Assembly (NCBI GenBank): GCA_019057865.1
Contig: JAHLWP010000039.1
Coordinates: 1 to 37,593 of the forward strand
Origin: Promethearchaeota archaeon
Lineage (GTDB): Archaea; Asgardarchaeota; Lokiarchaeia; Sigyniarchaeales; SOKP01
DNA: 37,593 nucleotides
Reading direction: 5' to 3'
Shown here: positions 6,702 through 11,131 of the stretch, one piece after another
Layout: every line of letters begins with the position of its first letter
Numbering within the stretch: the first letter of the stretch is position 1
The notes under the pieces: model-generated
Told to the model about the DNA's origin: nothing
What the model saw: only the letters and a program-made list of their open reading frames with translations
The model's database searches: none
Position numbers and translations under genes: made by a program

Positions 6702-8846
6702 ATGGGAAAAAAAAAAAAAAAGAAACCAGAACGCCGAATGGGCTGGAGTGCTGAGGAAGCTGGAGAAGAATTAGTTGCTGATGCATTAAAAAGGACTGAT
6801 TTGGATGAAGGGCGTGTAAAATTAGTTGATAGAGATACTGCTACTCCTGTTATAGAAACTTATGATAAAGACACTGGAGAACTTGAGGGATCAATTATCT
6901 TAAAGGATAGAAATCGAGAAGGATTATTAGCGCAAGTGAAGATAATTGAAGAAGTTGATGTAAAACAGGACCACGACGGAAATCTTGAATCCATAAGTTT
7001 CGCTGGAAAACTAAATATCGAGAATCCTTCGAAGACTGATCGTATTTGGGATATAGATTTATCGCTTAAAAATATTGGAGGTACGAACTTAAAATCAAAA
7101 GATATTTCAATAAGAGAATTAAGTACAGATCCTACTGAAAATATTGACTCCCGCAATTTTCAATTAACTGGAGAGGTTAAAAACCTTTTATTAGTGAAAG
7201 AATACATCAGTACATTAACTAATGCCGATGATATATTAAACATACACGACATTGAGAATAATCTTTTGAATTTAAAAGAAGTAACAAGTAAAACTTCAAA
7301 GATGGCAAGCAAACCAAAATTAGTGAAGGCTACTGAATATGAGGAAGAAGAGGAAGAAGAGGAGGAAGGTGAAACATGGGAGGATGGAGGAACATCTGCT
7401 GAGTCTGGATTAGAAACTTATGGTATTTCCATTGATAAAGAAAATACTGTAACATTTGCTATTGCTGTTAGAAGTGAATTTGATAAAAATGTTTCTAATA
7501 TTAAAGTCGTTAAAAGCATTCCCGACGATTTTACTAATCCAGTAATTCGAGATACATCAGTAGGAAAAGCTGAAATTGAAGGTAATAAAGTTATTTGGAC
7601 AATTGATATATTACCTCCTGAAAGAACAGCGTTATTGAAATTTACCTGTTCTATTTTTGTAACTGATATCATTAAGAGAAAAACCGGAAATATTGATGTT
7701 ACTTACGAGGCAGCTTCTTCATTTGCCGAGGGTTTAGATATAGATAAATTTGATGCCTATACACGTAATAAATTTTATGTTGATACAGTTGAAAGAGATG
7801 AGGAACCAGGAGTTTGGGATTGTAAGCTTGTTTTTGATAATTCTTCAGAATTTATAATTCAGCTTTTTAATGCTGATATATACTCCCCAGAAGATGAATC
7901 CACGAAATTTGTGGATATTGATCCTGAAGATGTTCCTATGCTACCTGCTGGAGCTCAATGGCACTCAAAGAAATGGCAATATGAAAGTGAAGATTATCCT
8001 TCTTTTAGAAAGAAACTAGAATTTAGAGTAATGCCTGATTTCCGAACAATAGTTAATGGCTCAACAGCGATATCTGATGTTATCTTAGAAATAGCTAGTA
8101 TCACTGGAGAAATGAAATATGATAAAACTGAAACTCCAACTTATAAGGAGCAAGATATTGTCACTACCCTTAAAATGGCTAATAATGGTTCTGCTCCTCT
8201 AAATGAACTAAATATTGTACAACAATACTTCTCAGATGAATATCAACCTCCTAAAGCTAGTGAAATAAAAATGGTATGGGATGGAGATGAAGTAGAGTTA
8301 GCTCCCGCAGCTGTAACTTTTGAAGCTAATGTATTTACTATATCTCTAACAGATCTGAAAGATAGTAGCACTGGGATGTTTGAACCAGATTCTACTATTG
8401 GATTTGAATATCCCGTCCATTGTGTCAATCCTGCTAAGGATTCTACATTCGAATCTGAAATATTCTATCGTGCTAATACATTTCCAGTGAGTCAAGAGTT
8501 AGAATTCAAACCTGATGTTCCAATAATCGAAGCACTTCATATTAGAAGGAAATTCAGAATTGGAAAGGAAGTTATTCCTGTTGGTACACTCGGAAATTAC
8601 AGGATTATATTGACTCTTGAAAATATTGGTGAATCACGCCTTTATAATCTTGTTTTACTCGATAAGGTACCTGATTTATTTGAATACTCGAATTACTCGA
8701 TGACACCTGAGATAACGGATGAAGTGGGGGCTGATACCCTAAAATGGGAGATAGATACCCTAGAAGTTGGAGATAGGTTAGAAATTACATACGAAATCAC
8801 TGGAACAGGAAAGTATAGCCCAAGTGAAGCTCAGCTAGGTCTATAA
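6702..8846 (+). CDS. Acidic all-beta protein with an adaptor mu-homology-domain (MHD)-like region and further Ig-like (DUF11/CARDB-like) sandwiches
   Basis: Long ORF with no signal peptide or TM helix. aa ~77-110 (IIEEVDVKQDHDG...FAGKL) and aa ~250-348 (RSEF..NIKVVKSIPDDFTNP..TSVG..KVIWTI..IDVTYE..EGLDI) resemble recalled AP mu/delta-COP MHD segments. The C-terminus has a DUF11-like 'LTLENIG..LYNLVLLDKVPD..LKWEIDTL..G..LEITYEI'. The CDS is certain; the product is an inference. Confidence 0.6.
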   Translation: MGKKKKKKPERRMGWSAEEAGEELVADALKRTDLDEGRVKLVDRDTATPVIETYDKDTGELEGSIILKDRNREGLLAQVKIIEEVDVKQDHDGNLESISFAGKLNIENPSKTDRIWDIDLSLKNIGGTNLKSKDISIRELSTDPTENIDSRNFQLTGEVKNLLLVKEYISTLTNADDILNIHDIENNLLNLKEVTSKTSKMASKPKLVKATEYEEEEEEEEEGETWEDGGTSAESGLETYGISIDKENTVTFAIAVRSEFDKNVSNIKVVKSIPDDFTNPVIRDTSVGKAEIEGNKVIWTIDILPPERTALLKFTCSIFVTDIIKRKTGNIDVTYEAASSFAEGLDIDKFDAYTRNKFYVDTVERDEEPGVWDCKLVFDNSSEFIIQLFNADIYSPEDESTKFVDIDPEDVPMLPAGAQWHSKKWQYESEDYPSFRKKLEFRVMPDFRTIVNGSTAISDVILEIASITGEMKYDKTETPTYKEQDIVTTLKMANNGSAPLNELNIVQQYFSDEYQPPKASEIKMVWDGDEVELAPAAVTFEANVFTISLTDLKDSSTGMFEPDSTIGFEYPVHCVNPAKDSTFESEIFYRANTFPVSQELEFKPDVPIIEALHIRRKFRIGKEVIPVGTLGNYRIILTLENIGESRLYNLVLLDKVPDLFEYSNYSMTPEITDEVGADTLKWEIDTLEVGDRLEITYEITGTGKYSPSEAQLGL

Positions 8847-8866
8847 AATCAAATTAAATTTAATTA

Positions 8867-8886
8867 TTTTTTATTTTTTTATTTTT
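8867..8886 (+). terminator. T-tract (archaeal-type) terminator candidate after the 714-aa gene
   Basis: Runs TTTTTT-A-TTTTTTT-A-TTTTT about 20 nt after the stop codon. Confidence 0.5.
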
Positions 8887-10666: not shown

Positions 10667-10696
10667 TAAAGTTTTAGAATTCTTAAAAAGGAAAAC

Positions 10697-11131
10697 TTAT
10701 TCGAAGAATGCTTTTATCTCATCTAAAAAAGATTCGAATTGATTTAATTCTGTAAAATCGCTATTGTAATATCTTTGATTAAATAATTCTAAAATAGGTT
10801 CTGCAGTATCAAAAAACTTCTTTACTAATTTATCTGGATTCTTCTTTTTTTTGTCTACTAAGCCATACATAATAATAGGTTCTTTTGAATTACTATCGTT
10901 TGATTTTATTTCTGAAATTTTGAAAATAAAAAGAATTGAACCCGATTCTAAATATTCTAAAGATGTGTTATTGAATGCGCTTTGAGCAAATGTGTTTATT
11001 GCTGAAATAAAAGCCCCTCTTAGATCTTTTGCAACACCCTTTTTTTTTTGAGTAGGTAACTCTTTAAGGCTGTAATTTATAAGCACAAAACCTCGAAAGA
11101 CTATTCCTAACTCATAGAGATATTCGCTCAA
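10697..11131 (-). CDS. Stand-alone longin-fold (sigma/sedlin-like) protein
   Basis: 144 aa with a beta-beta-alpha-beta-beta-beta-alpha-alpha pattern. 'DLRGAFISAINTFA', 'LEYLESGSILFIF', 'ILELFNQRY' and 'FESF...I' match my recollection of Asgard longin-like proteins. The TTG start is uncertain. Confidence 0.7.
   Translation of the reverse strand: MSEYLYELGIVFRGFVLINYSLKELPTQKKKGVAKDLRGAFISAINTFAQSAFNNTSLEYLESGSILFIFKISEIKSNDSNSKEPIIMYGLVDKKKKNPDKLVKKFFDTAEPILELFNQRYYNSDFTELNQFESFLDEIKAFFE

Follow-up and report, generated by a model that had tools for sequence, protein, structure and literature searches.

A near-universal Asgard protein family with a predicted mu-homology domain, and its propeller and longin neighbours in Lokiarchaeia

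Mu-homology domains (MHDs) occur in the mu subunits of the adaptor protein (AP) complexes and in delta-COP, where a longin is fused to the N-terminus, and in the muniscins SGIP1 and Syp1, whose MHDs are longin-free. Among propeller proteins, BBS2 and BBS7 of the BBSome also carry coiled-coil, GAE and platform domains. How the AP/COPI adaptors arose is not settled, and Asgard mu domains have so far been treated as patchy Pfam matches. Eme et al. 2023 (PMC10307638) report a C-terminal mu domain that is found sparsely across most Asgard phyla and is not fused to a longin. An Asgard BBS7/ITFG2 cluster has been catalogued as well (10.64898/2026.10.28.762692). Here we examine three adjacent genes, which we term A, B and C (Table 1), in a stretch of 37,593 nucleotides (the window) from a Promethearchaeota archaeon of the Lokiarchaeia (contig JAHLWP010000039.1). 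An initial annotation had described an MHD-like protein, a propeller with BBS2-like blades and a free longin, and had read them as an ancestral membrane-trafficking module encoded in parts. The explanation that we find best overall, and favour on balance, is that A is a cytoplasmic MHD adaptor or scaffold, B probably its accessory partner, and C a bystander. A literature search found no paper on the locus; subscription journals lay outside its coverage.

The protein encoded by gene A is predicted to hold a whole MHD, with both interleaved subdomains and the chain returning to subdomain A, rather than a mere immunoglobulin-like (Ig) look-alike. An AlphaFold2 model of A, built with 67 homologues (mean predicted local distance difference test score, pLDDT, of 85), was compared with 48,161 solved chains in a domain-aware VIA search. 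The top six matches are all MHDs, among them AP-2 mu2 (Z 16.3), mu4 (Z 15.0, root-mean-square deviation (rmsd) 2.5), mu3 (Z 14.8) and delta-COP (Z 14.2). Further down the list, mu1 (Z 13.9), SGIP1 (13.3) and Syp1 (11.6) are interleaved with pilin matches to another part of A. In a second VIA comparison, residues 72-459 of A superposed on residues 168-435 of AP-2 mu2 with Z 17.1 and an rmsd of 3.5-3.9 over 223-228 aligned residues. Both interleaved subdomains of the AP-1 to AP-4 mu subunits, delta-COP and the two muniscins superpose on A, with colinear sequence similarity, and the A family profile matches AP-3 mu (E 6.7e-5) with the first strand colinear. Because the structural matches over both subdomains outrank the pilin Ig matches, and because of the profile match to AP-3 mu, we regard the MHD of A as complete. 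The sequence identity behind the MHD matches (Z 11.6-17.1, 210-228 residues superposed) is merely 8-16%. The initial annotation had raised generic S-layer Ig proteins as the competing outcome; the best structural matches of A are instead genuine MHDs.

Pfam hmmscan matched PF00928 to residues 246-357, which is subdomain B only, at 34.5 bits against a gathering cut-off of 31.6, and also matched DUF11; a looser genome-wide PF00928 search did not list this genome. A single-sequence PDB search with A found nothing, and Foldseek with the whole 714-residue model returned only generic multi-Ig matches (template-modelling score <0.25), so that a domain-aware search was needed. The lack of a longin in A, as in muniscin MHDs and unlike AP mu and delta-COP, had been correctly noted from the start: residues 1-71, a basic tail followed in the model by a single helix and a hairpin, give no longin match by Pfam, and none was found in the 10 long relatives scanned. 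We take the YxxPhi pocket of mu2 to consist of Asp176, Trp421 and Arg423. By the register of a profile alignment, which is not one of coordinates, the Asp176 position is Lys in 15/16 members of A's clade, whereas 16/44 members from elsewhere in the Asgard archaea have Asp there, and the last MHD strand of the clade has no Trp equivalent to Trp421. Because of this Lys and the lack of a Trp equivalent, A seems unlikely to read YxxPhi signals.

The A family is near-universal in Asgard archaea, and it is not Asgard-specific. Its profile finds members in 168/201 Asgard genomes, mostly as a single, strongly conserved copy, and a full-length A-family protein is present in 42/151 Thermoplasmatota genomes, Marine Group II included, so the MHD family is no exclusive property of Asgard archaea and eukaryotes. 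Eme et al. 2023 (PMC10307638) call the Asgard mu domain sparse, in contrast to the count obtained with our profile. This patchiness is a detection limit, because Pfam PF00928 finds only 35/201 genomes where the family profile finds 168, and all 30 of the 30 PF00928 loci that were fetched encode full-length A-family members. Supplementary Table 3 of that study lists an 'Adap_comp_sub (PF00928)' candidate eukaryotic signature protein at contig 59, 3811-5961, matching a protein (G008:C59) that is 93% identical to A, and a Jordarchaeia member in the same table aligns to the A profile with 98% probability. By these similarities, A belongs to a signature-protein family already published. The available parts of the study do not describe the five-domain architecture, the Thermoplasmatota members or the propeller neighbour. 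New here are this architecture, the distribution across Asgard archaea and Thermoplasmatota, the link to CLIPPER domains set out below, and the A-B pair as a lead. The A-family tree has poor deep support and contains no eukaryotic sequences, and cannot decide between transfer and inheritance for the Thermoplasmatota members.

The initial annotation, correct in calling A MHD-like, had left out three further Ig domains: one inserted into the MHD and two (D4 and D5) trailing it, by which A differs from the AP mu, delta-COP and muniscin MHDs. An acidic loop and the extra beta-sandwich are probably insertions, because the MHD match spans 388 residues, of which ~228 are aligned. The possibility of another MHD in tandem, beginning at residue 355, is unsupported, as hhalign gave D1 versus D3 a probability of only 11.5%. 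Aligned by hhalign to MHD subdomain B, D4 reached 94% and D5 98% (E 3e-13), and all three resemble CLIPPER and CnaA pilin domains by DUF11 and pilin matches. Subdomain B of the MHD is therefore homologous to D4 and D5, the three being repeats of the DUF11/CLIPPER kind, which ties part of the MHD to prokaryotic pilin-type Ig repeats. CLIPPER domains (DUF11, PF01345) are extracellular and form a Lys-Asn isopeptide bond catalysed by an Asp (10.1101/2025.04.25.650565). A differs from them in being cytoplasmic and in having the full Lys-Asp-Asn triad in no domain according to a conservation analysis. In MHD subdomain B, E167 and K271 occupy the places that K622 and D654 have in D5.

These resemblances bear on a different view of A, which we judge very improbable: that its role is structural, copies of A assembling with one another by way of the pilin-like Ig domains to give a dimer, filament or lattice, and the incomplete last domain taking a strand from a neighbouring copy. 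It would account for the match of D4 to pilin CnaA domains (Table 1), for the CLIPPER Lys and Asp that D5 keeps in nearly all family members without the Asn-bearing strand, and for the strong conservation of a single-copy protein. However, A has no signal peptide, the C-terminal tail could itself complete D5 in many members, and the faint match to archaeal bundling protein X (AbpX; E 0.26) is not significant.

Gene B encodes a propeller with a confident seven-blade model and FG-GAP-like DxDGDG blades. Its best Pfam matches are the BBS7 propeller (E 3.6e-21), BBS2_Mid (2.2e-10) and Itfg2 (1.3e-8), and BBS proteins and ITFG2, the latter of KICSTOR, are also its best PDB sequence matches. By fold, BBS2 (Z 34.6) is tied with CIAO1 and many WD40 proteins follow close behind, so that the model does not separate B from generic WD40 proteins or point to specific orthology with BBS2, BBS7 or ITFG2. 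The seven blades and the BBS-type sequence matches bear out the description of B as a propeller with BBS2-like blades. Two winged-helix-like repeats (residues 370-424 and 490-553) had also gone unmentioned; with linkers, they make up the C-terminus of B, in the place where BBS2 and BBS7 have their coiled-coil, GAE and platform domains, none of which was found in B. Clear orthologues of B were found only within the host's order.

Gene C was not assigned to a named family in Pfam, NCBIfam or PDB sequence searches. Reciprocal jackhmmer searches link it to a Fuz_longin_1 protein of the same genome (C60:54788), and iterative searches, which can drift, join it with ~40 longin-like proteins there, bearing out both the identification of C as a free longin and the caution that longins are abundant. 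The alignment of C shows a pattern that fits the beta-beta-alpha-beta-beta-beta-alpha-alpha longin fold, and in its Atlas neighbour cluster Fuz_longin_1 is found on 34% of members (score 0.89), which we treat as a lead. C is thus best described as a probable Mon1/Fuz-type longin, related to the stand-alone Asgard longins of the Mon1/Ccz1/Fuz/Intu type. Unlike these, it is divergent and family-specific, with no direct Pfam match. Nor does it appear sigma- or zeta-like: the sigma-adaptin model PF01217 did not match C, and gave nothing above cut-off in the search for adaptor subunits. Orthologues of C were found in the host family only.

We then asked whether the three genes belong together, taking as the host family 41 Lokiarchaeia genomes (this genome and 40 relatives). 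A, B and C are adjacent in 26/41 of them, with four further loci interrupted by contig ends, and the synteny extends just as far to a glycerate kinase gene and to two small genes that are unrelated. Synteny across Asgard genomes had been named in advance as a test of the proposed module, and the gene order is kept only inside this one family. C is present in all 40 relatives by profile and sits at the locus in all but one (G195, which has A and B there without C). In 9/41 family genomes (genera g2 and g3, and G144) C is retained where no orthologue of A or B was found; at seven contiguous loci C lies immediately next to the upstream flanking gene, and in G144 the order is glycerate kinase, Zn-ribbon, C. 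Conversely, A and B occur without C (L110, L057), as in G195 and in G165, the latter a member of another family in which they are neighbours in inverted order; this is the sole distant locus examined with a propeller beside A. Almost none of the remaining A homologues examined has a propeller or a longin as neighbour, and at 0/22 Thermoplasmatota loci was a homologue of B or C found beside A, the surroundings there being housekeeping genes. Because C stays in place where A and B are missing, and A and B occur without C, we conclude that C is a locus resident that follows neither of them. A functional module of all three genes is not supported, as it fails in both gene order and joint presence, and at most a two-gene partnership of A and B survives, with weak support.

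The idea that the three proteins make up a proto-adaptor or coat, with C taking the part of the longin at the N-terminus of mu and B that of a scaffold, is therefore remote. The fold assignments behind it were right, the three genes are adjacent in most of the host family, and Eme et al. 2023 (PMC10307638) describe Asgard longin and MHD domains as unfused. Set against this are the independent occurrence of C, its Fuz/Mon1-like character, its convergent orientation and its restriction to one family; moreover, with so many longin genes in the genome, adjacency comes cheaply. The neighbouring genes that were scanned included no adaptin-trunk gene; the Adaptin_N-like HEAT matches of this genome lie on other contigs, and the same model also matches in control prokaryotes. 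We suggest that the reading of this locus as a proto-coat operon be dropped.

One line of evidence for a partnership of A and B is the pattern of loss. In a tree of the flanking genes (FastTree, midpoint-rooted, with weak deep nodes), the state with C only falls on three separate branches, and g2 is nested among genomes with all three genes with a support of 1.0. A and B have been lost jointly at least twice, with both flanks retained, and their linkage survives the inversion in G165. Complex prediction with A(72-714) and B(1-340) gave a score of 0.52 (three runs: 0.52, 0.00 and 0.73), compared with 0.00 for the best control. The mark used for this score was reached by 58/80 solved complexes and 2/110 mismatched pairs, and at ≤0.60 by only 7/80 but by both mismatches. 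Between runs, the share of contacts in common is at least 0%, and the partner pLDDT is at least 87. The multimer prediction proposed by the initial annotation thus lends weak support to a contact between A and B.

Several observations weigh against our preferred explanation. In G138, B is intact although all that is left of A in front of it is a relic of the last 46 codons (L100:6158-6295), and two of the three f2 genomes (G089 and G094) have their B-like gene away from A. The spacer between A and B contains a conserved T-tract and a TATA-like box which, judged by archaeal consensus sequences, suggest a terminator followed by B's own promoter, and thus separate transcripts. One of the three complex runs scored 0.00, making the predicted contact weak, and the tyrosine-motif residues of mu2 are not kept in A's clade. 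It should also be noted that neighbouring genes can be deleted jointly without a shared function. Most of these points would fit a rival that we consider somewhat unlikely, in which A is a real MHD scaffold, the three genes are functionally unrelated, and A and B were lost jointly merely as adjacent, dispensable genes; the family-wide synteny of the entire block, glycerate kinase included, fits it too. What speaks against this rival is that the joint loss is repeated with both flanks kept, that the linkage outlasts an inversion, and that two of the three complex runs scored well above the controls.

Based on these findings, we still favour A as a cytoplasmic single-chain adaptor or scaffold, from an old archaeal family that, by fold and profile, shares the MHD with the eukaryotic mu and delta subunits. 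By analogy, A most likely works like the free MHDs of muniscins: an edge strand of its MHD may bind short peptide motifs in the tails of partner or membrane proteins, a rigid stalk would be formed by the extra Ig domains, and the variable ends of the family, here a Lys-rich N-terminus, may localise the protein. Because nearly all relatives examined are without a longin or a propeller as neighbour, the family needs neither. We speculate, at about an even chance, that one A paralogue in this Lokiarchaeia lineage has B as an accessory partner whose propeller docks on A, and that the winged helices of B recruit further proteins. C, judged by gene order in relatives, is an unrelated longin that was already sitting at the locus. 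A bolder proposal, in our estimate improbable, is that the Lokiarchaeia MHD protein and the BBS7/ITFG2-type propeller form a real cytoplasmic complex for membrane-protein sorting, which with its two subunits would be a forerunner, or else an analogue, of adaptor-plus-propeller coats, and that the mu domain of eukaryotes was excised from a near-universal Asgard five-Ig protein built from CLIPPER/pilin-type repeats. The A family offers a concrete protein, predicted to have the full MHD fold, for study in cultured Asgard cells, and the A-B pair is a cheap and testable lead.

The features of the locus are collected in Table 1. As first described, the three genes are adjacent and apparently cytoplasmic: since no 19-residue window exceeds 1.25 in a hydrophobicity scan, A, B and C have no signal peptide or transmembrane segment. 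The gap with its T-tract between A and B and the convergent orientation of the longin gene are likewise confirmed, the stops of B and C lying 30 bp apart. A sigma-70 promoter scan gave only chance-level results, this model being unsuited to archaea. RNA runs contained small shares only. Contigs of relatives span parts of A; such contigs cannot show transcription or co-transcription.

Table 1. Coordinates of the genes, spacer and protein regions of the A-B-C locus, numbered from the first nucleotide of the window
Feature	Position	Strand	Description
Gene A	6702..8846	+	714 aa; cytoplasmic five-beta-sandwich protein: Lys-rich N-terminus, MHD, inserted Ig domain, two CLIPPER/CnaA-like Ig domains
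MHD region of A	6915..8078	+	residues 72-459; both subdomains predicted; broken up by acidic loop and inserted domain
Acidic poly-Glu loop of A	7299..7406	+	residues 200-235; disordered, pLDDT <50; GAA/GAG run; lineage-specific
Extra beta-sandwich of A	7770..8030	+	~residues 357-443; probably inserted before the last MHD strand, from strand pattern, not coordinates
D4 of A, CnaA/pilin-type Ig domain	8091..8540	+	residues 464-613; against pilin SpaD Z 13.9, rmsd 2.7, 137 residues aligned
D5 of A, CLIPPER/DUF11-like domain	8541..8843	+	residues 614-714; conserved K622 and D654; no conserved Asn strand
A-B spacer	8847..9001	+	155 bp; T-tract after the stop of A, then TTTAAT-like box; both conserved (10-genome alignment)
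Gene B	9002..10666	+	554 aa; seven-blade FG-GAP/BBS7/ITFG2-like propeller and two winged-helix-like repeats
Propeller of B	9005..10006		residues 2-335
Gene C	10697..11131	-	144 aa; stand-alone longin, probably Mon1/Fuz type; independent resident of the locus

The neighbouring genes scanned in the window are mostly metabolic or housekeeping genes. Upstream of A, a small CxxC Zn-ribbon open reading frame (ORF; 6293-6505) is conserved in several relatives and is kept in G144 despite the loss of A and B. Two small conserved ORFs without a Pfam family (14225-14470 and 14575-14871) are syntenic throughout the family, including in genomes without A and B. A DDE transposase gene (36073-37380) and a PIN-domain gene (19769-20194) are ordinary. 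At the G138 locus (contig C25) that holds the relic of A, gene C is tandemly duplicated.

Members of the A family have no signal peptides and vary at their ends, which may be Lys-rich or carry HEAT repeats, Pro-rich tails or Zn ribbons. In three members (P0169, P0248 and P0262) the N-terminus carries a fused partner, either HEAT repeats (HEAT_2 E 8.5e-15) or a NACHT domain or TPRs, and the presence of HEAT repeats and an MHD-like region in a single chain recalls an adaptin trunk plus mu. This genome has a second A paralogue (L125:8005-10140, contig C68 of G000) with a C-terminal extension and no propeller or longin homologue beside it; its orthologue in genus g3 adjoins a 368-residue ORF (L080:6949-8055) that looks gelsolin-like by eye and has no Pfam match. 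At Marine Group II-type loci (L097:3721-4539 and L098:7043-7885), the A homologue and a GPN-loop GTPase gene (PF03029) are transcribed divergently, with the A homologue lying upstream of an EMC3/DUF106 gene. A divergent A paralogue in G189 (L093:7918-9924) and G192 (L094:8261-10285) resides in a chemotaxis cluster, where it immediately follows cheA and has cheC and cheR nearby, and forms its own long-branch clade in the A-family tree.

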